The notes: generated from the sequence alone by a model not told the origin. A DNA stretch of 64,000 bases from Escherichia coli (GCF_003991155.1 NZ_CP031295.1); one strand, 5' to 3'; positions 16,871 to 63,790 are shown, counted from the stretch's first letter. A program made the numbers and translations.

Positions 16871-17097
16871 CTTTAAAAATCAGGATTTATTTCAGACTCC
16901 GGCAATACGCATTTATGTGTTCTGTCAGTCATCCGGCTGGCAGGTAATGAGAACGCAGGAACAGAAGGAGGAAAACACCGGAGAACGTCAGACGCAGATA
17001 TGAAAAAAGCAGGTCAGGGACCTGCTTAATCCACACCGCAGAGACTGCACGAACAGTCTTTACGGTTTCATTAATTAACGTCATAAGAGGCTAAATT

Positions 17098-17328
17098 ATG
17101 ACAGTAAGTATTGTTTCACCTTCCGCAGCGGCTGTAAAGCCCCGCCGTCATCCCCGTTTCAGACGCGAAGACATCCCCGCGCCGGAAATTGACCCCGTGC
17201 TGAAAGCCTTCGGGCGACACATTGCCCGGAGTTTTCACCGGGGGCGTGGTGTACACATCCCCGCCATGAAAAACACGGCCTTCGGGCAGGTGCTCCGCAC
17301 ACTCGAACTGAAACGCGCTTTTAACTGA
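17098..17328 (+). CDS. small basic hypothetical protein (76 aa)
   Basis: First ORF downstream of repeat copy 1; AGAGG RBS. Confidence 0.5.
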   Translation: MTVSIVSPSAAAVKPRRHPRFRREDIPAPEIDPVLKAFGRHIARSFHRGRGVHIPAMKNTAFGQVLRTLELKRAFN

Positions 17329-24270: not shown

Positions 24271-24491
24271 TGCGGCAACAATCACACGGATTTCCCGTGA
24301 ACGGTCTGAATGAGCGGATTATTTTCAGGGAAAGTGAGTGTGGTCAGCGTGCAGGTATATGGGCTATGATGTGCCCGGCGCTTGAGGCTTTCTGCCTCAT
24401 GACGTGAAGGTGGTTTGTTGCCGTGTTGTGTGGCAGAAAGAAGATAGCCCCGTAGTAAGTTAATTTTCATTAACCACCACGAGGCATCCCT

Positions 24492-24704
24492 ATGTCTAGT
24501 CCACATCAGGATAGCCTCTTACCGCGCTTTGCGCAAGGAGAAGAAGGCCATGAAACTACCACGAAGTTCCCTTGTCTGGTGTGTGTTGATCGTGTGTCTC
24601 ACACTGTTGATATTCACTTATCTGACACGAAAATCGCTGTGCGAGATTCGTTACAGAGACGGACACAGGGAGGTGGCGGCTTTCATGGCTTACGAATCCG
24701 GTAA
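24492..24704 (+). CDS. mok: mok-like overlapping leader ORF of the hok locus (flmC-like)
   Basis: ORF overlapping hok in another frame, as in hok/sok-type loci. Confidence 0.45.
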
Positions 24705-28458: not shown

Positions 28459-28564
28459 AAGAAATTTGACTTCGTTCAAATATCAGAGTTTTTATGATTT
28501 AAAAAGGTGACAGTACGAAAGATAATTAGTATATTAATTACGTGGTTAATGCCACGTTAAAATT

Positions 28565-28650
28565 TGAATTTGAAAATCGCCGATGCAGGGAGTTCTCTCC
28601 TCCCTGCATCGACTGTCCATAGAATCCTTTGTGAGGAGGTTCCTATGTAT
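28565..28650 (-). ncRNA. finP: FinP antisense RNA (complementary to the traJ leader)
   Basis: Stem-loop GATGCAGGGAG...CTCCCTGCATC in the traJ 5' UTR overlapping the traJ RBS; position as in F-like plasmids; boundaries approximate. Confidence 0.5.
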
Positions 28651-29334
28651 CCGATGGATCGTATTCAACAAAAACATGCTCGTCAAATAGATCTGCTGGA
28701 AAATCTGACGGCAGTTATTCAGGATTATCCAAATCCAGCCTGTATCAGGGACGAAACTGGAAAATTTATTTTTTGCAATACGCTGTTTCATGAGTCATTT
28801 CTTACACAAGATCAAAGTGCTGAAAAATGGCTTCTGTCGCAGAGAGATTTTTGTGAATTGATCTCTGTCACAGAGATGGAAGCATACAGGAATGAGCATA
28901 CGCATCTTAATCTTGTAGAGGATGTTTTTATTCAGAACAGATTCTGGACAATATCTGTCCAGTCATTTCTTAATGGACACAGAAATATTATTCTGTGGCA
29001 ATTTTATGATGCTGCTCATGTTCGTCATAAAGACAGTTATAATCAAAAAACGATTGTCAGTGATGATATCAGAAATATAATCAGAAGAATGAGTGATGAT
29101 TCTTCTGTATCATCATATGTAAATGATGTCTTTTACTTATATAGCACCGGAATCAGTCATAATGCTATAGCAAGAATATTAAATATATCCATCTCCACAT
29201 CAAAGAAACACGCATCTCTGATATGCGACTACTTCTCTGTTTCTAATAAAGATGAGTTAATTATCTTACTCTACAATAAAAAGTTTATTTATTATTTATA
29301 CGAGAAGGCTATGTGTATCATAAATACGCGTTAA
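28645..29334 (+). CDS. traJ: TraJ transfer activator
   Basis: MYPMDRIQQKHARQIDLLENLTAVIQDYPNPACIRDETGKF... matches F TraJ; GAGGAGG RBS. Confidence 0.9.
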   Translation: MYPMDRIQQKHARQIDLLENLTAVIQDYPNPACIRDETGKFIFCNTLFHESFLTQDQSAEKWLLSQRDFCELISVTEMEAYRNEHTHLNLVEDVFIQNRFWTISVQSFLNGHRNIILWQFYDAAHVRHKDSYNQKTIVSDDIRNIIRRMSDDSSVSSYVNDVFYLYSTGISHNAIARILNISISTSKKHASLICDYFSVSNKDELIILLYNKKFIYYLYEKAMCIINTR

Positions 29335-47019: not shown

Positions 47020-49838
47020 ATGAAGTTTATGTGATTGCCGGTGGTGAGTGGTTGCGGAATAACCTGAACGCCATTGCCGCCTTTATGGGAACCAGGACGT
47101 GGGATTCCATTGAAAAAATTGCGCTCACATTGTCTGTTCTCGCGGTGGCCGTAATGTGGGTACAGCGGCACAACGTGATGGATTTGCTGGGCTGGGTGGC
47201 CGTATTTGTGCTTATCAGCCTGCTGGTTAATGTCCGCACATCGGTGCAGATTATTGATAACAGTGACCTGGTCAAAGTTCACCGGGTGGATAATGTGCCG
47301 GTCGGACTGGCGATGCCACTTTCACTGACGACCCGTATCGGGCATGCAATGGTGGCCAGTTACGAGATGATCTTCACGCAACCGGACAGTGTCACCTACA
47401 GCAAAACGGGGATGCTGTTTGGCGCAGAACTGGTATCAAAAAGCACCGACTTTTTGTCCCGCAATCCGGAAATCGCCAATCTTTTCCAGGATTATGTGCA
47501 GAACTGTGTTATGGGGGATATTTACCTGAACCACAAATACACGCTGGAGGAGCTGATGGCCTCCGCTGATCCCTACACGCTGATTTTTTCCCGCCCCAGC
47601 CCGCTGCGGGGCGTTTATGACAGCAATAATAATTTCGTAACCTGTAAGGACGCGTCGGTTTCGCTGAAAGACAAGCTGAATCTGGACACACAGAGTGGCG
47701 GAAAAACCTGGCATTATTATGCCCAGCAGCTATTTGGTGGACGCCCTGATCCTAACCTGCTGTTCAGTACGCTGATTGGCGACAGTTACAGTTACTTCTA
47801 TGGCTCAAGTAAATCAGCCAGCCAGATCATCCGCCAGAATGTCACCATCAATGCGCTGAAGGAGGGGATCACCAGTTATGCCGCACGTAATGGTGATTCG
47901 GCCAGCCTGGTGAATCTGGCCACCACGTCATCGATGGAGAAACAACGTCTGGCACATGTCTCCATCGGTCATGTGGCGATGCGGACACTGCCCATGACGC
48001 AGACCATCCTGACGGGGATCGCCATCGGTATTTTCCCGCTCCTGGTACTGGCGGCTGTATTCAACAAACTGACGCTGTCTGTCCTGAAAGGTTATGTGTT
48101 TGCCCTGATGTGGCTGCAGTCATGGCCACTCTTGTACGCCATTCTGAACAGTGCCATGACATTTTATGCGAAACAGAATGGTGCGCCGGTGGTGCTCTCT
48201 GAAATTTCACAGATACAACTGAAATACTCCGATCTGGCTTCCACTGCCGGGTATCTTTCCATGATGATCCCGCCATTATCCTGGATGATGGTCAGGGGGC
48301 TTGGGGCCGGATTTTCCAGTGTGTACAGCCATTTCGCTTCCTCTGCTATCAGCCCGACTGCCAGTGCGGCAGGTAGTGTGGTTGACGGTAATTACTCCTA
48401 CGGCAACATGCAGACGGAAAACGTGAACGGCTTCAGCTGGAGCACCAACAGCACCACGTCGTTTGGTCAGATGATGTACCAGACCGGCAGTGGCGCAACC
48501 GCCACACAGACCCGTGACGGTAATATGGTGATGGATGCAAGCGGAGCGATGTCCCGTTTACCGGTCGGTATCAATGCAACGCGTCAGATTGCAGTGGCAC
48601 AACAGGAAATGGCCCGGGAGGCGTCGAACAGAGCAGAAAGTGCCCTGCATGGTTTCAGCAGCAGTATTGCCAGTGCCTGGAACACGCTCAGTCAGTTTGG
48701 TTCTAACCGGGGGAGCAGTGACTCTGTCACCAGTGGTGCTGACAGTACGATGAGTGCACAGGACTCCATGATGGCCAGCCGTATGCGCAGTGCAGTGGAA
48801 AGCTATGCGAAGGCGCATAATATCAGTAATGAGCAGGCGACTCAGGAACTGGCATCCAGAAGTACGAGAGCTTCTGCCGGGATGTATGGAGATGCTCATG
48901 CTGAATGGGGGGTTAAACCTAAAATTCTTGGTGTTGGTGGAGGATTAGGCGTTAGAGGTGGTGGTCGGGCTGGCATTGACTGGAGTGATGATGATGCGCA
49001 TCAGGCCAGCAGTGGTTCACGGGCCAGCTATGATGCTCGTCATGATATTGACGCTAAAGCCAGTAAGGACTTTAAAGAGGCCAGCGATTACTTTACCAGT
49101 CGCAAAGTCAGTGAATCCGGCAGCCATACTGACAATAATGCTGATTCCCGGGTGGATCAACTGTCTGCAGCCCTGAATTCAGCGAAACAGAGTTACGACC
49201 AGTACACGACGAATATGACCCGCAGCCATGAATATGCTGAAATGGCATCCCGTACTGAAAGCATGAGTGGGCAGATGAGCGAAGATTTGTCGCAACAGTT
49301 TGCACAGTATGTGATGAAACACGCACCGCAGGATGCCGAAGCTATTCTGACAAATACCAGTTCGCCGGAGATTGCAGAACGCCGTCGGGCAATGGCCTGG
49401 TCTTTTGTGCAGGAACAGATACAGCCTGGTGTTGATAATGCCTGGCGGGAATCCCGTGGCGATATTGGTAAAGGAATGGAGAGCGTACCTTCGGGTGGAG
49501 GCAGTCAGGATATTATTGCTGACCATCAGGGACATCAGGCCATTATTGAGCAAAGAACGCAGGACAGTAATATCCGTAATGATGTAAAACATCAGGTTGA
49601 TAATATGGTCACAGAATATAAAGGGAATATAGGTGATACTCAGAACAGCATACGTGGCGAGGAAAATATTGTAAGAGGACAGTATTCTGAACTGCAGAAT
49701 CACCATAAAACAGAGGCATTATCTCAGAATAATAAATATAATGAAGAAAAGTCGGCTCAGGAAAGAATGCCCGGGGCTGACAGTCCACAGGAACTGATGA
49801 AAAGGGCAAAGGAGTATCAGGATAAGTATAAGCAATAA
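47016..49838 (+). CDS. traG: TraG (mating-pair stabilisation / entry exclusion partner)
   Basis: 940 aa; F order. Confidence 0.95.
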   Translation: MNEVYVIAGGEWLRNNLNAIAAFMGTRTWDSIEKIALTLSVLAVAVMWVQRHNVMDLLGWVAVFVLISLLVNVRTSVQIIDNSDLVKVHRVDNVPVGLAMPLSLTTRIGHAMVASYEMIFTQPDSVTYSKTGMLFGAELVSKSTDFLSRNPEIANLFQDYVQNCVMGDIYLNHKYTLEELMASADPYTLIFSRPSPLRGVYDSNNNFVTCKDASVSLKDKLNLDTQSGGKTWHYYAQQLFGGRPDPNLLFSTLIGDSYSYFYGSSKSASQIIRQNVTINALKEGITSYAARNGDSASLVNLATTSSMEKQRLAHVSIGHVAMRTLPMTQTILTGIAIGIFPLLVLAAVFNKLTLSVLKGYVFALMWLQSWPLLYAILNSAMTFYAKQNGAPVVLSEISQIQLKYSDLASTAGYLSMMIPPLSWMMVRGLGAGFSSVYSHFASSAISPTASAAGSVVDGNYSYGNMQTENVNGFSWSTNSTTSFGQMMYQTGSGATATQTRDGNMVMDASGAMSRLPVGINATRQIAVAQQEMAREASNRAESALHGFSSSIASAWNTLSQFGSNRGSSDSVTSGADSTMSAQDSMMASRMRSAVESYAKAHNISNEQATQELASRSTRASAGMYGDAHAEWGVKPKILGVGGGLGVRGGGRAGIDWSDDDAHQASSGSRASYDARHDIDAKASKDFKEASDYFTSRKVSESGSHTDNNADSRVDQLSAALNSAKQSYDQYTTNMTRSHEYAEMASRTESMSGQMSEDLSQQFAQYVMKHAPQDAEAILTNTSSPEIAERRRAMAWSFVQEQIQPGVDNAWRESRGDIGKGMESVPSGGGSQDIIADHQGHQAIIEQRTQDSNIRNDVKHQVDNMVTEYKGNIGDTQNSIRGEENIVRGQYSELQNHHKTEALSQNNKYNEEKSAQERMPGADSPQELMKRAKEYQDKYKQ

Positions 49839-51123: not shown

Positions 51124-51220
51124 GGAGGCTGGTCTGACCGGCCTCCTGACTGACGCCTCGCTTTGCTCGTTGTCCAACCCCGGGGAGAAATAAAATAAAT
51201 TTTATTTCTCCCCGGCGTTT
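51124..51220 (+). terminator. tandem hairpins after traT
   Basis: GGAGGCTGGTCTGACCGGCCTCC, then CCCCGGGGAGAAATAAAAT...ATTTTATTTCTCCCCGG. Confidence 0.7.
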
Positions 51221-51366: not shown

Positions 51367-53507
51367 ATGAGTTTTAACGCAAAGGATATGACCCAGGGCG
51401 GTCAGATTGCGTCCATGCGTATCCGCATGTTCAGTCAGATCGCCAATATCATACTTTACTGCCTGTTTATTTTTTTCTGGATCCTAGTTGGTCTGGTTTT
51501 ATGGGTAAAAATAAGCTGGCAGACGTTTGTGAATGGCTGCATTTACTGGTGGTGCACCACGCTGGAAGGCATGCGGGATTTAATCAGGTCCCAGCCGGTC
51601 TATGAGATCCAGTATTACGGCAAAACCTTCCGGATGAACGCGGCTCAGGTACTGCATGATAAATATATGATCTGGTGCGGAGAGCAGCTATGGTCCGCAT
51701 TCGTTCTGGCCACAGTTGTGGCACTGGTTATTGCCTGATTACCTTCTTTGTTGTCTCACGGATTCTGGGGCGTCAGGGTAAACAACAGAGCGAAAATGAA
51801 GTCACAGGTGGTCGTCAGCTGACAGACAATCCGAAAGACGTTGCCCGGATGCTGAAAAAGACGGCAAGGACTCCGATATACGGATTGGCGACCTGCCGAT
51901 TATCCGGGATTCCGAAATCAGAACTTCTGTCTGCACGGCACGGTCGGGGCCGGTAAGTCGGAAGTTATCCGTCGTCTGGCCAACTACGCCCGTCAGCGTG
52001 GAGATATGGTGGTGATTTATGACCGTTCAGGGAATTTGTTAAAAGTTACTATGATCCCTCCATCGATAAAATCCTGAATCCGCTGGATGCCCGCTGTGCC
52101 GCACGGGATTTGTGGAAGAGTGCCTGACACAGCCAGATTTTGATAATACCGCAAATACTCTGATCCCGATGGGGACAAAAGAGGACCCGTTCTGGCAGGG
52201 TTCAGGACGTACCATTTTTGCGGAAGCGGCATACCTGATGCGTAATGACCCCAACCGCAGCTACAGCAAACTGGTGGACACACTGCTTTCCATCAAAATT
52301 GAAAAGCTGCGTACCTTCCTGCGTAATTCACCGGCGGCCAACCTGGTGGAAGAGAAAATCGAGAAAACGGCCATATCCATCCGTGCTGTGCTGACCAACT
52401 ACGTGAAAGCCATCCGTTACCTGCAGGGGATTGAGCATAACGGTGAGTCTTTACCATCCGTGACTGGATGCGTGGTGTCCGGAAGATCAGAAAAACGGCT
52501 GGCTGTTTATCTCGTCGAATGCCGACACCCATGCCTCCCTGAAGCCGGTGATCTCCATGTGGCTGTCCATTGCCATTCGTGGTCTGCTGGCAATGGGAGA
52601 AAACCGTAACCGTCGTGTGTGGTTTTCTGTGATGAGCTACCCACGTTACACAAACTGCCGGACTGGTGGAGATCCTGCCGGAAGCCCGTAAGTTCGGTGG
52701 CTGTTATGTGTTTGGTATCCAGTCTATGCCCAGCTGGAAGATATCTACGGTGAAAGCGGCTGCCACGCTGTTTGACGTCATGAACACCCGTGCCTTTTTC
52801 GTTCTCCCAGCCATAAGATTGCAGAGTTCGCTGCCGGTGAGATTGGTGAGAAAGAGCACCTGAAAGCCAGCGAGCAGTATTCCTACGGTGCTGATCCGGT
52901 ACGTGACGGGGTATCGACCGGTAAGGATATGGAGCGTCAGACGCTGGTCAGTTATTCCGACATTCAGTCTCTGCCGGATCTGACCTGTTATGTCACCCTG
53001 CCCGGACCGTATCCGGCAGTAAAACTCTCCCTGAAATATCAGACACGACCGAAGGTCGCTCCGGAGTTTATTCCGCGTGACATCAACCCGGAAATGGAGA
53101 ACCGTCTGAGTGCCGTACTTGCCGCAAGGGAAGCAGAAGGTCGTCAGATGGCCAGCCTCTTCGAACCGGATGTCCCGGAGGTTGTTTCCGGAGAAGACGT
53201 GACTCAGGCTGAACAGCCGCAACAGCCGGTGTCTCCTGCCATCAACGATAAGAAGTCAGATGCAGGTGTGAATGTTCCGGCAGGGGGGATCGAGCAGGAG
53301 CTGAAAATGAAACCGGAAGAAGAGATGGAACAGCAACTGCCACCCGGGATCAGTGAATCCGGTGAAGTGGTGGATATGGCCGTTTATGAGGCATGGCAAC
53401 GGGAGCAGAATCCGGATATCCAGCAGAAGATGCAGCGTCGTGAAGAGGTGAACATCAATGTGCACCGGGAGCGCGGGGAGGATGTTGAGCCGGGAGATGA
53501 TTTCTGA
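51367..53507 (+). pseudogene. traD: traD (coupling protein) fragmented into at least five reading-frame segments
   Basis: TraD-like peptide runs in ORFs 51367-51738, 51675-51956, 52112-52609, 52666-52863 and 52929-53507, each in a different frame; Walker [12 protein letters not shown] is in yet another frame near 51935. Confidence 0.8.
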
Positions 53508-53515
53508 TGAACAGG

Positions 53516-53914
53516 TCAGCTCCAGTCTTCAATTCTCAGACCGTCCACACGTTCAAATTCCCGGGTGTTATTAGTCACAATAATCAGTCCCCGACTGCGG
53601 GCATGACCTGCGATCATTTGATCAAATGGCCCGACAGGGCGTCCCTGACGGGCAAGTTCTGCTCTTATCTGGCCGCTGTGTGTGGCTGCGGCAGCGTCGT
53701 AATCCAGAACATCAATGCGGGAAACAAATCCCTCGATCACAGCGAGATTACGTTCAGGCATCTGGCTTTTTTCTGCACCATATATCAGCTCCATCAGGGT
53801 GACCGAACTGATACACATTCTCCCCTGGTTCAGGTTAAAACGCTCCCTGACGCTGGCGGGTTTGTTCTTTATCGTGAAAATGCAGATGTTGGTATCGAGC
53901 ATAAACTTCAGCAT
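53516..53914 (-). CDS. vapC: VapC PIN-domain toxin
   Basis: MLKFMLDTNICIF PIN N-terminus; 132 aa. Confidence 0.85.
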   Translation of the reverse strand: MLKFMLDTNICIFTIKNKPASVRERFNLNQGRMCISSVTLMELIYGAEKSQMPERNLAVIEGFVSRIDVLDYDAAAATHSGQIRAELARQGRPVGPFDQMIAGHARSRGLIIVTNNTREFERVDGLRIEDWS

Positions 53915-54141
53915 CAGAATGACTCCCTTTCCTGCATGCCGGGCTGTTCCCTGTTATCCATAAAATCGGCGCTGACGTTGTGTCCGTCGAACCATTCGTC
54001 CCATGTCTCTCCGGCTGGCGTAATGATTCTGGTTCGTCCGACAGCAATCACTTCAACGCGTTTTACGTTTTCCGGCAATGCAACCGCTTTTGGCAGTCTG
54101 ACCGCCTGGCTGCGGTTGCTGAAAAATACGGTGGTTTCCAT
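53914..54141 (-). CDS. vapB: VapB antitoxin
   Basis: 75-aa ORF immediately upstream of, and coupled to, vapC. Confidence 0.8.
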   Translation of the reverse strand: METTVFFSNRSQAVRLPKAVALPENVKRVEVIAVGRTRIITPAGETWDEWFDGHNVSADFMDNREQPGMQERESF

Positions 54142-54222
54142 TATTTGCCTCCTTATGTGGATATGTCTTGTGTATATCCATTGTGGGATTGATACCGGGA
54201 TATGTCAAAGGGATATACGTTT

Positions 54223-57200
54223 ATGATGAGTATCGCGCAGGTCAGATCGGCCGGAAGTGCCGGTAACTATTATACCGACAAGGATAATTACTATGTGCTG
54301 GGCAGCATGGGAGAACGCTGGGCCGGCAGGGGGGCTGAACAGCTGGGGCTGCAGGGCAGCGTCGATAAGGATGTTTTTACCCGTCTTCTGGAGGGGAAGC
54401 TGCCGGACGGAGCGGATTTAAGCCGCATGCAGGATGGCAGTAATAAGCATCGTCCCGGCTACGACCTGACCTTCTCCGCCCCCAAAAGTGTCTCCGTGAT
54501 GGCCATGTTAGGCGGTGATAAACGTCTTATTGATGCACATAACCAGGCCGTGGATTTTGCTGTCCGTCAGGTGGAGGCGCTGGCTTCCACACGGGTTATG
54601 ACGGACGGACAGTCAGAAACGGTGCTGACCGGTAATCTGGTGATGGCACTGTTTAACCACGACACCAGTCGCGATCAGGAACCACAGTTACACACACATG
54701 CGGTAGTGGCCAATGTCACGCAGCATAACGGCGAGTGGAAGACATTGAGCAGTGACAAAGTGGGGAAAACGGGGTTCATTGAGAATGTGTACGCTAATCA
54801 GATTGCCTTCGGCAGGCTCTACCGGGAAAAACTGAAAGAGCAGGTTGAGGCGCTAGGCTATGAAACGGAAGTGGTTGGTAAGCACGGTATGTGGGAGATG
54901 CCGGGCGTACCGGTGGAGGCCTTCTCCGGACGCTCACAGGCTATCCGGGAGGCCGTCGGGGAAGACGCCTCGCTGAAATCCCGGGATGTGGCGGCACTGG
55001 ATACGCGAAAATCCAAACAGCACGTCGATCCTGAAGTCAGAATGGCTGAATGGATGCAGACGCTGAAGGAAACCGGGTTCGACATCCGGGCGTATCGTGA
55101 CGCGGCGGACCAACGGGCGGAGACCCGCACGCAGACGCCCGGACCCGCTTCACAGGACGGGCCGGATGTGCAGCAGGCGGTGACACAGGCCATTGCCGGA
55201 TTAAGTGAACGCAAAGTGCAGTTTACGTACACGGACGTGCTGGCCAGAACGGTCGGCATACTGCCGCCGGAAAATGGTGTGATTGAACGGGCACGCGCCG
55301 GTATCGATGAGGCCATCAGCCGTGAGCAGCTTATCCCCCTCGATCGTGAGAAGGGGCTGTTCACGTCCGGGATTCATGTGCTCGATGAGCTGTCAGTCCG
55401 GGCACTCAGTCGTGACATCATGAAACAGAACCGGGTGACCGTACATCCGGAGAAAAGTGTCCCCCGGACGGCCGGTTACAGCGATGCGGTCAGTGTTCTG
55501 GCACAGGATCGCCCGTCGCTGGCTATTGTGTCCGGGCAGGGCGGTGCAGCCGGGCAGCGTGAGCGGGTGGCGGAGCTGGTCATGATGGCCCGGGAGCAGG
55601 GGCGGGAGGTGCAGATTATCGCCGCTGACCGTCGCTCGCAGATGAACCTGAAGCAGGATGAACGGCTGTCCGGTGAGCTGATAACCGGACGTCGTCAGCT
55701 GCAGGAGGGCATGGCCTTCACGCCGGGCAATACTGTTATCGTTGACCAGGGCGAAAAACTCTCCCTGAAAGAGACGTTAACCCTGCTGGACGGTGCCGCA
55801 CGTCATAACGTACAGGTCCTGATAACCGACAGCGGGCAGCGAACCGGTACAGGCAGTGCACTGATGGCCATGAAAGATGCCGGGGTGAACACATATCGCT
55901 GGCAGGGGGGAGAACAGCGGCCGGCCACCATCATCAGTGAACCGGACCGTAATGTCCGCTATGCCCGGCTGGCAGGAGATTTTGCTGCCAGCGTGAAAGC
56001 CGGAGAAGAGAGCGTGGCACAGGTCAGCGGGGTACGGGAACAGGCCATACTGACACAGGCCATTCGCAGTGAGCTGAAAACACAGGGCGTGCTCGGACGC
56101 CCGGAGGTAACCATGACCGCCCTGTCGCCGGTCTGGCTGGACAGCCGGAGCCGTTATCTGCGGGATATGTACCGTCCGGGGATGGTGATGGAGCAGTGGA
56201 ACCCGGAGACACGCAGTCATGACCGCTATGTTATCGACCGGGTGACGGCGCAGAGTAACAGCCTGACCCTGCGGGATGCGCAGGATGAAACGCAGGTGGT
56301 GCGTATTTCCTCCCTGGACAGCAGCTGGTCGCTGTTCCGGCCGGAAAAAATGCCGGTGGCAGACGGCGAGCGACTGAGGGTGACAGGGAAAATTCCCGGA
56401 CTCCGCGTCTCCGGCGGTGACCGCCTGCAGGTGGCATCCGTCAGTGAAGATGCGATGACGGTTGTTGTGCCGGGGCGGGCTGAACCGGCCTCCCTGCCTG
56501 TGAGCGATTCACCATTCATGGCACTGAAGCTGGAGAACGGCTGGGTGGAAACGCCCGGGCATTCCGTCAGCGACAGTGCGAAGGTTTTTGCCTCCGTCAC
56601 ACAGATGGCAATGGACAACGCCACCCTGAACGGTCTGGCCCGCAGCGGTCGTGATGTCCGGCTGTATTCCTCACTGGATGAAACCCGTACTGCGGAAAAA
56701 CTTGCCCGCCATCCCTCCTTTACGGTGGTTTCTGAGCAGATAAAGGCGCGTGCCGGTGAGACATTGCTGGAAACCGCTATCAGTCTGCAGAAAACCGGGC
56801 TTCACACGCCGGCACAGCAGGCTATTCATCTGGCGCTTCCTGTGGTGGAAAGTAAAAACCTGGCCTTCAGCATGGTGGACCTGCTGACAGAGGCGAAGTC
56901 GTTTGCTGCAGAAGGAACCAGTTTTACTGAACTGGGAGGGGAAATCAATGCGCAGATAAAACGCGGTGATTTACTGTATGTGGATGTGGCAAAAGGCTAT
57001 GGCACAGGCCTGCTGGTTTCCCGTGCGTCGTATGAGGCAGAAAAGAGCATTCTTCGCCATATTCTCGAAGGTAAGGAGGCGGTCACGCCACTGATGGAGA
57101 GAGTACCTGGCGAACTCATGGAGAAACTGACATCAGGACAGCGTGCCGCTACCCGCATGATACTGGAAACGTCCGACCGTTTCACGGTGGTGCAGGGCTA

Positions 57201-59493
57201 TGCCGGTGTGGGTAAGACCACACAGTTCCGGGCGGTGATGTCAGCCGTGAACATGCTGCCGGAGAGTGAACGTCCCCGTGTCGTGGGGCTGGGGCCCACG
57301 CACCGTGCGGTCGGTGAGATGCGCAGCGCCGGCGTGGATGCACAGACGCTGGCGTCCTTTCTGCATGACACGCAGCTGCTGCAGCGCAGCGGAGAAACGC
57401 CGAATTTCAGCAACACGCTGTTCCTGCTCGATGAGAGCTCTATGGTGGGCAATACCGACATGGCACGGGCATACGCCCTGATTGCGGCCGGTGGCGGTCG
57501 TGCCGTGGCCAGTGGTGACACGGACCAGTTGCAGGCCATCGCGCCCGGTCAGCCTTTCCGTCTCCAGCAGACGCGCAGTGCTGCCGATGTGGTCATCATG
57601 AAGGAGATTGTGCGTCAGACGCCGGAACTGCGGGAGGCGGTATACAGCCTGATTAACCGGGATGTGGAAAGGGCACTGTCCGGGCTTGAGAGTGTGAAAC
57701 CGTCTCAGGTTCCCCGTCAGGAGGGCGCATGGGCACCGGAGCACTCCGTGACGGAGTTCAGTCACAGCCAGGAAGCGAAACTGGCAGAAGCGCAGCAGAA
57801 GGCGATGCTGAAAGGCGAGGCTTTCCCGGATATCCCCATGACACTGTATGAAGCCATTGTCCGCGACTATACCGGCAGGACACCGGAAGCACGGGAGCAG
57901 ACGCTGATTGTCACACACCTGAATGAGGACCGGCGCGTACTGAACAGCATGATTCATGATGCACGGGAAAAGGCCGGTGAGCTGGGCAAAGAGCAGGTCA
58001 TGGTGCCTGTCCTGAACACAGCGAATATACGTGACGGAGAACTGCGTCGTCTCTCCACCTGGGAGAATAACCCGGATGCCCTTGCCCTGGTGGATAGTGT
58101 GTATCACCGGATTGCCGGTATCAGCAAGGATGACGGGCTGATAACCCTGGAGGATGCGGAAGGTAACACGCGGCTGATTTCGCCCCGGGAGGCGGTGGCT
58201 GAAGGCGTCACACTGTACACCCCGGACACCATCCGGGTGGGAACCGGTGACCGGATGCGCTTCACGAAGAGTGACCGGGAGCGAGGTTATGTGGCCAACA
58301 GCGTCTGGACGGTGACAGCGGTTTCCGGTGACAGTGTCACGCTGTCGGACGGACAGCAGATCCGGGTGATTCGCCCAGGTCAGGAGCGGGCAGAGCAACA
58401 TATTGACCTGGCTTATGCCATCACCGCCCACGGTGCGCAGGGGGCAAGTGAAACCTTTGCCATCGCGCTTGAAGGCACGGAAGGTAACCGGAAACTGATG
58501 GCCGGCTTTGAGTCAGCCTACGTGGCCCTGTCGCGTATGAAGCAGCATGTGCAGGTGTACACCGATAACCGTCAGGGCTGGACGGATGCCATCAACAATG
58601 CCGTACAGAAAGGAACTGCCCACGATGTGCTAGAGCCGAAATCGGACCGGGAGGTCATGAATGCAGAGCGGCTGTTCAGTACGGCGCGGGAGCTGCGGGA
58701 CGTGGTGGCCGGCCGTGCCGTTCTCCGTCAGGCAGGGCTGGCCGGGGGAGACAGTCCTGCACGGTTTATTGCACCCGGGCGCAAATATCCGCAGCCGTAT
58801 GTGGCACTGCCGGCTTTTGACCGTAACGGCAAGTCAGCTGGTATCTGGCTGAACCCGCTGACCACGGATGACGGAAACGGGCTGCGGGGCTTCAGTGGTG
58901 AAGGCCGGGTGAAAGGCAGCGGGGATGCGCAGTTCGTGGCCCTGCAGGGCAGCCGTAACGGAGAGAGCCTGCTGGCTGATAATATGCAGGATGGTGTCCG
59001 GATTGCCCGTGATAATCCTGACAGCGGTGTGGTGGTAAGAATCGCCGGTGAAGGTCGTCCGTGGAATCCCAGAACCATCACCGGTGGTCGCGTGTGGGGG
59101 GATATCCCGGACAACAGCGTTCAGCCGGGAGCCGGAAATGGCGAACCGGTCACGGCAGAGGTACTGGCACAGCGGCAGGCTGAAGAGGCCATCCGCCGTG
59201 AAACGGAACGCCGTGCGGATGAAATTGTCCGTAAAATGGCAGAGAACAAACCTGACCTGCCGGACGGCAAAACAGAGCAGGCTGTCAGGGATATTGCCGG
59301 GCTGGAGCGTGACCGGTCTGCCATATCTGAACGGGAAGCCGCGCTGCCGGAGAGTGTACTGCGTGAACCACAACGGGTGCGGGAAGCGGTCCGGGAGGTT
59401 GCCCGGGAAAATCTGCTGCAGGAGCGACTGCAGCAGATGGAGCGGGATATGGTTCGTGACCTGCAGAAAGAGAAAACCCTGGGCGGAGACTGA
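54223..59493 (+). CDS. traI: TraI relaxase-helicase
   Basis: MMSIAQVRSAGSAGNYYTDKDNYYVLGSMGERWAG relaxase N-terminus; helicase Walker A GYAGVGKTT; about 1756 aa. Confidence 0.95.
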   Translation: MMSIAQVRSAGSAGNYYTDKDNYYVLGSMGERWAGRGAEQLGLQGSVDKDVFTRLLEGKLPDGADLSRMQDGSNKHRPGYDLTFSAPKSVSVMAMLGGDKRLIDAHNQAVDFAVRQVEALASTRVMTDGQSETVLTGNLVMALFNHDTSRDQEPQLHTHAVVANVTQHNGEWKTLSSDKVGKTGFIENVYANQIAFGRLYREKLKEQVEALGYETEVVGKHGMWEMPGVPVEAFSGRSQAIREAVGEDASLKSRDVAALDTRKSKQHVDPEVRMAEWMQTLKETGFDIRAYRDAADQRAETRTQTPGPASQDGPDVQQAVTQAIAGLSERKVQFTYTDVLARTVGILPPENGVIERARAGIDEAISREQLIPLDREKGLFTSGIHVLDELSVRALSRDIMKQNRVTVHPEKSVPRTAGYSDAVSVLAQDRPSLAIVSGQGGAAGQRERVAELVMMAREQGREVQIIAADRRSQMNLKQDERLSGELITGRRQLQEGMAFTPGNTVIVDQGEKLSLKETLTLLDGAARHNVQVLITDSGQRTGTGSALMAMKDAGVNTYRWQGGEQRPATIISEPDRNVRYARLAGDFAASVKAGEESVAQVSGVREQAILTQAIRSELKTQGVLGRPEVTMTALSPVWLDSRSRYLRDMYRPGMVMEQWNPETRSHDRYVIDRVTAQSNSLTLRDAQDETQVVRISSLDSSWSLFRPEKMPVADGERLRVTGKIPGLRVSGGDRLQVASVSEDAMTVVVPGRAEPASLPVSDSPFMALKLENGWVETPGHSVSDSAKVFASVTQMAMDNATLNGLARSGRDVRLYSSLDETRTAEKLARHPSFTVVSEQIKARAGETLLETAISLQKTGLHTPAQQAIHLALPVVESKNLAFSMVDLLTEAKSFAAEGTSFTELGGEINAQIKRGDLLYVDVAKGYGTGLLVSRASYEAEKSILRHILEGKEAVTPLMERVPGELMEKLTSGQRAATRMILETSDRFTVVQGYAGVGKTTQFRAVMSAVNMLPESERPRVVGLGPTHRAVGEMRSAGVDAQTLASFLHDTQLLQRSGETPNFSNTLFLLDESSMVGNTDMARAYALIAAGGGRAVASGDTDQLQAIAPGQPFRLQQTRSAADVVIMKEIVRQTPELREAVYSLINRDVERALSGLESVKPSQVPRQEGAWAPEHSVTEFSHSQEAKLAEAQQKAMLKGEAFPDIPMTLYEAIVRDYTGRTPEAREQTLIVTHLNEDRRVLNSMIHDAREKAGELGKEQVMVPVLNTANIRDGELRRLSTWENNPDALALVDSVYHRIAGISKDDGLITLEDAEGNTRLISPREAVAEGVTLYTPDTIRVGTGDRMRFTKSDRERGYVANSVWTVTAVSGDSVTLSDGQQIRVIRPGQERAEQHIDLAYAITAHGAQGASETFAIALEGTEGNRKLMAGFESAYVALSRMKQHVQVYTDNRQGWTDAINNAVQKGTAHDVLEPKSDREVMNAERLFSTARELRDVVAGRAVLRQAGLAGGDSPARFIAPGRKYPQPYVALPAFDRNGKSAGIWLNPLTTDDGNGLRGFSGEGRVKGSGDAQFVALQGSRNGESLLADNMQDGVRIARDNPDSGVVVRIAGEGRPWNPRTITGGRVWGDIPDNSVQPGAGNGEPVTAEVLAQRQAEEAIRRETERRADEIVRKMAENKPDLPDGKTEQAVRDIAGLERDRSAISEREAALPESVLREPQRVREAVREVARENLLQERLQQMERDMVRDLQKEKTLGGD

Positions 59494-60317: not shown

Positions 60318-61178
60318 ATGAAAATTACGGATCACAAACTCCCTGAAGGTATTGCCCTGACATTTCGTGTCCCGGAAGGAAATATAAAACATCCTTTGAT
60401 TCTCTTATGCCATGGATTTTGCGGTATCCGGAATGTTCTGCTGCCTTCCTTTGCGAATGCGTTTACAGAAGCCGGGTTTGCAACGATTACTTTTGATTAT
60501 CGTGGATTCGGTGAGAGTGAAGGGGAACGAGGTCGTCTGGTTCCGGCAATGCAGACCGAAGATATTATTTCAGTTATCAATTGGGCAGAAAAGCAGGTAT
60601 GTATTGATAATCAGCGTATAGGATTATGGGGAACATCGCTGGGTGGGTGTCATGTATTCAATGCAGCTGCGCAGGATAAAAGAGTGAAAAGTATTGTCAG
60701 CCAGCTGGCTTTTGCTGACGGTGAGGTTCTGGTTACCGGAGAAATGAATGAACTGGAGAAAGCTTCTTTTCTGTCCACGCTGAATAAAATGGCAGAAAAG
60801 AAGAAAAATACCGGGAAAGAGATGTTTGTGGGGGTTACCCGGGTACTGAGTGATAATGAATCAAAGGTATTCTTCGAGAAGGTAAAAGGTCAGTATCCTG
60901 AAATGGATATAAAAATACCTTTCCTTACGGTTATGGAGACGTTGCAATATAAACCGGCAGAGAGCGCAGCCAAAGTACAGTGCCCAGTTTTGGTTGTTAT
61001 TGCCGGCCAGGATAGTGTTAATCCACCAGAACAGGGAAGAGCCTTATATGATGCTGTTGCTTCTGGTACTAAGGAATTATACGAGGAAGCTGACGCATGC
61101 CATTATGATATTTATAAAGGCGCGTTTTTTGAACGTGTGGCGGCAGTACAGACGCAATGGTTTAAAAAACATCTTTAA
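60318..61178 (+). CDS. alpha/beta-fold hydrolase
   Basis: GxSxG nucleophile elbow (LWGTSLGGC) and HGFCG oxyanion-hole-like motif; 286 aa. Confidence 0.7.
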   Translation: MKITDHKLPEGIALTFRVPEGNIKHPLILLCHGFCGIRNVLLPSFANAFTEAGFATITFDYRGFGESEGERGRLVPAMQTEDIISVINWAEKQVCIDNQRIGLWGTSLGGCHVFNAAAQDKRVKSIVSQLAFADGEVLVTGEMNELEKASFLSTLNKMAEKKKNTGKEMFVGVTRVLSDNESKVFFEKVKGQYPEMDIKIPFLTVMETLQYKPAESAAKVQCPVLVVIAGQDSVNPPEQGRALYDAVASGTKELYEEADACHYDIYKGAFFERVAAVQTQWFKKHL

Positions 61179-61976: not shown

Positions 61977-62189
61977 ATGAATGGATTCAGAAACAGTTCA
62001 CGGAACGGTCAGGTCTGGCGTTACCAGCGTGCCGGCGGGCGGGCCGTTATTCTGGAGGTCAGTGGACGCTGGATGGAAGCGGCAGAAGCATGGCGACGGG
62101 CTGCCTGCATAGCTCCCCGGACAGACTGGCAACAGTTTGCCCGGAAAAGGGCTGAACACTGCCACCGGCGCTGCCGGGGAAGGGTGTAA
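61977..62189 (+). CDS. small basic hypothetical protein (70 aa)
   Basis: ORF with AGGGAGG RBS; Arg/Trp-rich; uncertain. Confidence 0.35.
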   Translation: MNGFRNSSRNGQVWRYQRAGGRAVILEVSGRWMEAAEAWRRAACIAPRTDWQQFARKRAEHCHRRCRGRV

Positions 62190-62869
62190 CGAAAAAAGCA
62201 GCCTTCATTACTCCAGGAGTCAGAAGGCTGAAAGGAGTTTATGAGATTTGCTTTTTTTAATATCCGGTCGGGCAGTATGACCGGCCAGTTCTGAGTAGCA
62301 CAGAGTTTTTTCCGTATTAAGTCGCGATTTTATATTTTGTGATTAATTTCACAAAATAAGGTCTTATTCAATGTGTGCTGCGATATTCAGGGGGGCTGAA
62401 ATACAGGTGCCATTTATCTGATATGGAGAATAACATGAGGAAATATATTCCACTGGTATTATTTATCTTTTCATGGCCGGTATTGTCTGCAGATGTTCAC
62501 GGGCAGATTTATGCACCAGACAGAATGAATGTTAATTAGTTTATGAATACAACAGGGGCTGATCAGCAATCACCGGAACATCGTAGCTGACGCGTTCGCA
62601 ATGCTCAGTTGTCCCCCCCGGAAACGGGAAAAAGTAAGTTTTCCCCCGCTCCCGGCGTTTTTGTAACAAAAACAGGCAAATGGGGGTAATAGTCAGCAAC
62701 AGGGAATGTGGTATTATCGCGGCGGGTGTTTGAGCCTTTCTGGTTCAGGCAAGACGCAGGTACCAGAAATGCGAAGACCCCACTCGTTAATCCATTAACT
62801 CGTGAGGTCTGCATGAAGTACCTTAACACTACTGATTGTAGCCTCTTCTTTGCTGAGAGGTCAAAGTTT

Positions 62870-63019
62870 ATGACGAAATATGCCCTTATCGGGTTGCTCG
62901 CCGTGTGCGCCACGGTGTTGTGTTTTTCACTGATATTCAGGGAACGGTTATGTGAGCTGAATATTCACAGAGGAAATACAGTGGTGCAGGTAACTCTGGC
63001 CTACGAAGCACGGAAGTAA
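62870..63019 (+). CDS. srnB: Hok/Gef-family toxin (SrnB/PndA-like, 49 aa) with in-frame upstream extension from 62813
   Basis: MTKYALIGLLAVCATVLCFSLIFRERLCELNIHRGNTVVQVTLAYEARK resembles the Hok toxin at 24550. Confidence 0.75.
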   Translation: MTKYALIGLLAVCATVLCFSLIFRERLCELNIHRGNTVVQVTLAYEARK

Positions 63020-63560: not shown

Positions 63561-63689
63561 ATATTCACATTCTTGCTTATCTCAGGAGTGAGTGGTAGAT
63601 TGCTGATCGTTTAAGGAATTTTGTGGCTGGCCACGCCGTAAGGTGGCAGGGAACTGGTTCTGATGTGGATTTACAGGAGCCAGAAAAGC

Positions 63690-63790
63690 GAAAACCCCGA
63701 TAATCTTCTTCAAGTTTGGCGACTAGAAAGATTACCGGGGCCCCATAAAACCGCATAGCCAACAATTCAGCTATGCGGGGAGTATAGTTA
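63690..63790 (-). ncRNA. copA: putative CopA antisense RNA / CopT target region
   Basis: Long imperfect hairpins (CCCCGATAATCTT...AAGATTACCGGGG and CCGCATAGC...GCTATGCGG) between copB and the leader peptide; boundaries approximate. Confidence 0.35.

Follow-up and report, generated by a model that had tools for sequence, protein, structure and literature searches.

A vapBC cassette lying backwards between traD and traI of an F-type plasmid, and an open frame on the transfer strand that may relay ribosomes across it

When a toxin-antitoxin pair lies backwards inside a transfer operon, what becomes of the transfer strand opposite it? We analyzed a 64,000-nucleotide stretch of Escherichia coli plasmid DNA (NZ_CP031295.1; the window, in whose numbering positions are given unless another record is named). 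A sequence-only reading of this DNA had placed a PIN-domain toxin and its antitoxin on the minus strand between traD and traI, and ORF calls with Pfam and NCBIfam searches locate both genes there, at 53516..54141. The features on which the argument depends are the following.

51367..53507, plus strand: traD, coupling protein gene, stop codon at 53505-53507 (NCBIfam TraD, matched on fragments)
53507..54226, plus strand: trbH, a 239-codon ORF antisense to the whole of vapC and vapB
53508..54223, no strand assigned: the 716-bp cassette, with ATGA on either side, from alignment with empty-site plasmids
53516..53914, minus strand: vapC, 132 amino acids (ORF and profile searches)
53914..54141, minus strand: vapB, 75 amino acids (ORF and profile searches)
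54142..54222, minus strand: divergent spacer of 81 bp with predicted vapBC promoter and operators (promoter and repeat scans)
54223..59493, plus strand: traI, relaxase/helicase, with the start as annotated in plasmids 100% identical over 53300-54400

Both vapC and vapB are intact in the window, with the antitoxin gene first and a one-base overlap between the vapB stop and the vapC start (ATGA at 53914). VapC matched the Pfam PIN family (E = 1.9e-21, 77 bits, cut-off 23.6) and the NCBIfam ‘tRNA(fMet)-specific endonuclease VapC’ subfamily (289 bits, cut-off 143), and its acidic catalytic residues D7, E42, D98 and E119 are present and unchanged across six homologues. VapB scored 110.6 bits against NCBIfam VapB (cut-off 60) and 24.4 bits against Pfam MazE_antitoxin, slightly below the cut-off of 24.7, and is taken as an antitoxin whose N-terminal DNA-binding domain is of the AbrB/MazE type. 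The stop codons of traD and vapC are separated by 8 bp and the start codons of vapB and traI by 81 bp; a traD-vapCB-traI arrangement with these identities is far beyond chance. The locus is almost certainly the VapBC (MvpAT) type II toxin-antitoxin module of enteric plasmids, at the site that it normally occupies in the F plasmid. In such modules VapC cleaves initiator tRNA, VapB binds and inhibits VapC, and the two together repress their own promoter; when the plasmid is lost, labile VapB decays and is no longer made, the cell is arrested, and the plasmid is thereby stabilized. Based on 97-98% identity to the Shigella proteins, we infer that VapC of the window is a PIN RNase cutting initiator tRNA(fMet) and is neutralized by VapB, and that the module probably stabilizes its plasmid, as has been established for the near-identical Shigella and pSLT pairs.

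The 81-bp spacer, which the traI ATG directly abuts, contains a predicted vapBC promoter with -35 TTGACA (54208-54203), a 17-nt spacer and -10 CACAAT (54185-54180), matching at 10 of 12 positions, and a strong Shine-Dalgarno sequence (AAGGAGG) lies upstream of vapB. An inverted repeat, TGGATAT-N9-ATATCCA, lies at 54158-54180 over the predicted -10 region, and a second GGATAT-bearing site at 54198-54221 covers the predicted -35 box. Spacers of pSLT, Edwardsiella and S. proteamaculans show both operator-type motifs, and that of Shigella shows the second site. The promoter with its inverted-repeat operators is thus predicted to be of the autoregulated type, and the VapB-VapC complex would repress it within the spacer adjoining traI. 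Autoregulation of vapBC through inverted repeats is attributed to Winther & Gerdes 2012 in a 2025 Shigella preprint. Another promoter-like match (54169-54140) was set aside since it overlaps the vapB start codon. Minus-strand terminator-like matches were also rejected as a vapBC terminator; they are weak, two fall inside vapC, and their number is near the shuffled expectation.

The layout and the stabilizing role of the module are already known, annotated and published. The pair is closely related to the Shigella pINV MvpAT/VapBC (PDB 6SD6, 3TND), VapC being identical to 6SD6_C at 129 of 132 positions (3 residues differ) and VapB to 6SD6_A at 73 of 75 (2 residues differ). Shigella pINV shares the window's operator/promoter spacer and the place after traD, whereas its tra flanks are remnants beside IS elements and the tra region of the window is whole, with traJ, traI, traX and finO intact. 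The vapBC2ST module of Salmonella Typhimurium pSLT (PSLT107/PSLT106) has the same site, orientation and 726-nt open stretch as the window, with 94.7% identity for VapC, 92% for VapB (which is one residue longer in pSLT) and 87.7% at the nucleotide level. A backwards vapBC between traD and traI is annotated in the classic F plasmid (NC_002483) and in S. sonnei pINV, and pSLT is annotated with PSLT105 ‘trbH’ on one strand and PSLT106/107 on the opposite one. Lobato-Marquez et al. (PMC5065971) described vapBC2ST as ‘encoded within the trbH gene’ and reported a 5.5-fold rise in pSLT loss upon its disruption, while a proteomic study detected VapB2 and VapC2 peptides (PMC4366850).

Within PLSDB, the vapBC lineage of the window is present at all in 1289 records, and the complete stretch from the traD end through vapCB to the traI start in 1164 of the 4208 records that match any part of it. 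A literature search for vapBC with traD and traI returned nothing that describes the layout by that wording, and the pAA and S. sonnei preprints were uninformative on the position of the module. The vagCD pairs near FIA/ccdAB of ST131-type IncF plasmids (pEC958, pEC_L8) are likewise PIN plus MazE-type addiction pairs, a likeness drawn from their description rather than their sequence, but their place on the plasmid is a different one, outside the tra operon; the vagC/vagD papers concern those copies near the FIA replicon and were rejected as a source on this module. It is textbook knowledge that vapBC contributes to the maintenance of virulence and resistance plasmids of the F type. What calls for explanation is the transfer strand.

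The pair had also been called inserted, and comparison with plasmids that lack it supports this. Empty-site F-like plasmids (E. coli p010_A, L090; Klebsiella pC588_2, L091) read TTCTGATGATG across the junction, where the traD stop and the traI ATG overlap by one base (TGATG). The window instead has the junctions TTCTGATGA-ACAGG...CGTTT-ATGATGAGT, with 716 extra bases between them. The left junction of Edwardsiella retains ATGTTGAGTATC. In S. marcescens plasmids (L094-L096, around 1963-1990) a second copy of the opening 17 nt of traI, ATGATGAGCATTGGCCA, stands at the left junction, in its best-kept form in L095; as judged from the sequence, this direct repeat around vapBC could mediate precise loss of the cassette.

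The cassette is an old resident of the junction. Between F and pSLT, dS is 0.84 for vapC, 0.76 for vapB and 0.80 for traI; within Serratia it ranges from 0.2 to 0.7, and in every pair compared vapC and vapB are about equal to traI. Values are saturated between F and Serratia, Pantoea or Edwardsiella. By the equality of vapBC and traI dS, the cassette is old and has travelled with traI, and its presence or absence among close traI alleles would most readily reflect recombination or deletion between short repeats. In a S. proteamaculans plasmid (L006, 1760-2440), traD and vapC are separated by a 226-aa N-terminal fragment of a MobF relaxase. This fragment shares only 35% identity with the N-terminus of the resident TraI; it seems to be what is left of a replaced relaxase gene, and suggests that vapBC and traI arrived there as one block.

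Related pairs also occur at other positions around the tra genes. E. coli p3_STEC346 carries vapBC at 78% nucleotide identity between a DUF2726 gene and traD (L005, 2495-3120), and S. enterica salamae pSGSC3045-121 carries it at 73% nucleotide identity after traX (L007, 1358-1938); both are again antisense to tra, and neither has a continuous ORF on the tra strand. In E. coli pE32-2 (L092, 2510-2737) vapB adjoins traI, and no vapC or traD is annotated from traT to vapB; a deletion may have left the antitoxin as an orphan, although the PLSDB tables omit pseudogenes. In a S. dysenteriae ATCC 9754 plasmid (L099, 1501-2125) a 1-nt deletion frameshifts vapC and leaves vapB intact, which is either toxin decay or a sequencing error.

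At the occupied traD-traI site the strand opposite vapBC is open throughout. The trbH ATG overlaps the traD stop (TGATG), its TGA overlaps the traI ATG (ATGA), and its start is the ancestral traI initiation site, with GGGAG upstream; its register is codon-aligned over vapC and shifted over vapB. The trbH of F is the same ORF, running from the traD stop to the traI start opposite vapC and vapB. It is classically a transfer gene of unknown function, while the evidence gathered here is for a kept frame and not for a protein. The frame is open and ends on the traI start (ATGA or TGATG) in all ten traD-vapCB-traI loci compared (the window, F, pSLT, S. sonnei pINV, Edwardsiella tarda, Pantoea ananatis, S. 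proteamaculans and three S. marcescens plasmids). In nine of the ten it also starts on the traD stop, the exception being S. proteamaculans, in which it starts 2 nt past the ORF of the relaxase fragment. The lengths of the intervening segments differ among loci while the phase does not: the left spacer between traD and vapC measures 8, 35, 58 or 77 nt (the 58-nt spacer follows the relaxase fragment in S. proteamaculans), the right spacer between vapB and traI 78, 81, 114, 117 or 120 nt, each a multiple of 3, and the traD-traI gap 715, 751, 778 or 817 nt, each 1 mod 3.

Elsewhere the antisense frame is seldom open, by a counting method that held up when checked again. It was found open in only 5 of 79 vapBC homologues outside tra, controls that come from other species and have no traD, traI or traX within the fetched flank (up to 3.5 kb); the truly independent lineages at the traD-traI site are few, about four, and these four against the controls give p = 7e-5 (Fisher's exact test). 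Even among tra-associated copies the bridging frame is broken at other positions, by two stops upstream of traD in p3_STEC346 and by one stop after traX in pSGSC3045-121. In one of the five open controls, a Pantoea stewartii contig (L019, 2871-3596), the ORF opposite vapBC is 241 codons long and follows a 193-aa ORF on its own strand; the locus gave no TraD or TraI hit.

Could the open frame be a functionless by-product of vapBC codon usage and shared ancestry? The vapC gene lacks TTA, CTA and TCA, the codons that give antisense stops; since vapB lacks them as well, synonymous permutation within each gene is uninformative (P = 1). We therefore resampled synonymous codons with the traI codon usage of each plasmid, leaving spacers and phase out of the calculation, and the probability of an open frame over vapCB was 0.13 for the window, 0.21 for pSLT, 0.04 for Edwardsiella, 0.20 and 0.05 for Serratia and 0.46 for Pantoea. 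Some of these values, such as those for the window and Pantoea, are not tiny and would suit a by-product. The joint probability across lineages is nevertheless of the order of 1e-4 with the spacers uncounted, and ancestry cannot hold the frame open when synonymous sites are saturated between lineages. The spacers also vary in length, yet phase is kept and the stop always falls on the traI ATG, and the rarity of the open frame in homologues elsewhere argues in the same direction. We regard a by-product as very unlikely, and it is very probable that selection keeps the trbH frame open.

The Shigella pINV plasmids were considered as a natural test of relaxed constraint, their tra functions being defunct, and were rejected for this purpose as too young. 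Of four pINV plasmids examined, three retain the open frame; the exception is the S. dysenteriae 1-nt deletion, which breaks vapC as well.

If the frame is selected, the most direct reason would be that TrbH is a real transfer protein encoded opposite vapBC. The gene has long been annotated, its length and position are conserved, and TrbH has been used as a tra protein in comparative work, in which trbH was found in 8% of MOBF12 plasmids (PMC5102898). That low frequency itself speaks against a transfer protein, as does the fact that many conjugative F-like plasmids lack the whole stretch. Searches of Pfam and NCBIfam with TrbH gave no family match, and TrbH proteins are 51-57% identical where VapB and VapC are 74-84% identical. 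Synonymous rates in vapBC are not depressed relative to traI; the pair keeps pace with traI at such sites, so that no added constraint comes from the opposite frame. A transfer protein is on these grounds highly improbable. What is conserved, as far as alignments can tell, is the open frame with its junctions and not the trbH product, and the annotation would be corrected accordingly: trbH is the mirror image of vapBC.

Another reason for an open frame lies in what the cassette does to the operon. Because vapBC points against the tra genes, tra mRNA must pass through some 715 nt of vapBC antisense before it reaches traI. We propose that, after vapBC landed in the traD/traI overlap, selection would have kept the tra strand stop-free and in phase, so that ribosomes leaving traD would translate trbH up to traI and preserve translational coupling. 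The same translation would shield a stretch of mRNA in which C exceeds G from premature (Rho-type) termination. Plus-strand RNA over the cassette is 26% C and 24% G, while G makes up 31-34% in the flanking tra genes, and C exceeds G only across the cassette; left untranslated, such a C-rich stretch would be expected to favor Rho-type termination. From this comparative pattern we lean, if slightly, toward trbH being a relay ORF rather than a protein gene, one that ribosomes would enter from traD and leave by terminating on the traI start. A coupling or anti-polarity mechanism for it seems somewhat more plausible than otherwise. The explanation as a whole, which takes together the VapBC identity, the layout, the selected open frame and the bridge, we consider likely.

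The stop/start junctions agree with such a relay. Overlaps of the TGATG and ATGA type are associated with coupling in bacterial operons, and traD and traI are joined by TGATG at the empty site; at the occupied site TGATG is found at traD/trbH (S. proteamaculans excepted) and ATGA or TGATG at trbH/traI. Unlike in ordinary coupled operons, the middle ORF is here the antisense of two genes and seemingly exists only as a ribosome relay. A rule that fits the pattern is that a bridge is kept only where the cassette splits a gene pair otherwise coupled by stop/start overlap. The traT-traD gap of F is 253 nt even without a cassette, and neither upstream of traD nor after traX, at the end of the operon, is a bridge kept.

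Several observations limit how strictly the proposed bridge could be needed. In most lineages a Shine-Dalgarno-like sequence is available to traI itself, which may therefore manage without coupling. In p3_STEC346 tra mRNA crosses vapBC without a continuous ORF, and protection from Rho can therefore be only part of the explanation. Maneewannakul and Ippen-Ihler reportedly found in 1993 that transfer was unimpaired by a kan insertion in trbH of F; if so, this counts against a strict need, in derepressed F at any rate, although the kan cassette may supply read-out transcription.

We know of no described case of an antisense relay ORF between coupled genes. If correct, the relay would explain trbH and ‘as-trbH’ as an ORF kept for being translated rather than for its product, on the strand facing two real genes, and would show how an operon tolerates a backwards cassette between two coupled essential genes. 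It also gives a testable reason for the mirror frame staying open, and stop codons that are silent in vapBC offer a handle on the influence of transfer and addiction on each other.

The spacer at the right-hand end suggests a different point of contact, in which VapBC bound to its operators, or the divergent promoter itself, controls traI. Immediately ahead of traI are the -35 box and the predicted operators, the latter 2-65 bp from its ATG; the operator motifs are found again in the diverged pSLT, Edwardsiella and S. proteamaculans spacers, and the older F literature speaks of traJ-independent traI expression. The promoter scan, however, found no plus-strand promoter-like site, and repressors are usually poor roadblocks to elongating polymerase. 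Control of traI from the spacer is doubtful, with at best a slim chance of being correct. In the same region, an upstream extension of the traI frame stays open as far as an ATG at 54202, which falls within the predicted vapBC operator, so that ORF calling gives a TraI of 1763 aa, while the identical plasmids annotate the start at 54223.

Influence in the opposite direction, from transfer to addiction, was the idea attached to the sequence-only reading. In a fuller form, convergent tra transcription, or pairing of tra and vapBC mRNAs, would lower or otherwise alter vapBC expression, so that addiction or VapC activity follows tra activity. The geometry suits this: the pair is antisense to the plus-strand tra operon, the vapC stop codon lies 8 bp from that of traD, and, as there is no plus-strand terminator-like site within 53300-54400 and no convincing vapBC terminator, tra transcripts would cross vapBC. 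The module faces against tra in all four positions seen (traD-traI, upstream of traD, after traX and behind the relaxase fragment). The intact finO of the window (357 bits) implies that tra transcription would be pulsed. The 2025 Shigella preprint, moreover, reports an antisense transcript, ‘as-trbH’, of unknown function.

Set against this, our literature search returned no report of toxin-antitoxin expression or activity changing with an antisense transcript. The F plasmid is constitutively derepressed and carries the same cassette, autoregulation of the vapBC promoter should buffer interference, and the antisense orientation could merely avoid over-expression by read-through. The conserved signal, moreover, is a tra-strand frame and its phase, with no obvious feature of vapBC regulation, and thus appears to point to selection on the tra strand rather than on regulation of the toxin-antitoxin pair. 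We consider an effect of tra transcription on vapBC unlikely, with some chance of being real. The earlier interpretation is thus partly supported, insertion and antisense layout holding, while its regulatory idea is a hypothesis and not a discovery.

The traD gene itself is irregular in the window. Alignment with plasmid record L001 shows that 13 single-base deletions, lying from 51731 to 52799 and mostly in short homopolymers, leave it as three ORFs, with the last 192 codons and the stop in frame. Of 39 substitutions relative to L001, 38 fall in the same patch (51681-52841), and the surrounding 9 kb is identical save for the remaining one, at 51179. None of 4270 matching PLSDB records shares the traD deletions, the best match being 98.0% identical. 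The frameshifts are probably errors in a patch of poor-quality sequence; otherwise traD is a pseudogene, and the plasmid would then be transfer-defective, with the traD-trbH-traI chain cut upstream.

Rfam searches found no family across the cassette. They did identify AS-traI (57072-57148, minus strand) and AS-traG (47735-47820, minus), along with AS-pc01 (17004-17103, minus) and AS-pc02 (62086-62271, minus), which are described as antisense to pHK01 genes; antisense transcripts within the tra operon are thus already catalogued, none of them over vapBC. Two sok antitoxin RNA matches (24376-24552 and 62724-62882, both plus strand) mark two hok/sok-type modules, and FinP/traJ 5' UTR and CopA matches lie at 28540-28651 and 63686-63774, respectively. 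These positions indicate that the window runs from the leading region through the entire tra operon into the beginning of the FII replicon. Between traX and finO, a 286-aa ORF (60318-61178, plus strand) matches the UilS family of quorum-quenching N-acyl-homoserine lactonases with 504 bits (cut-off 400).
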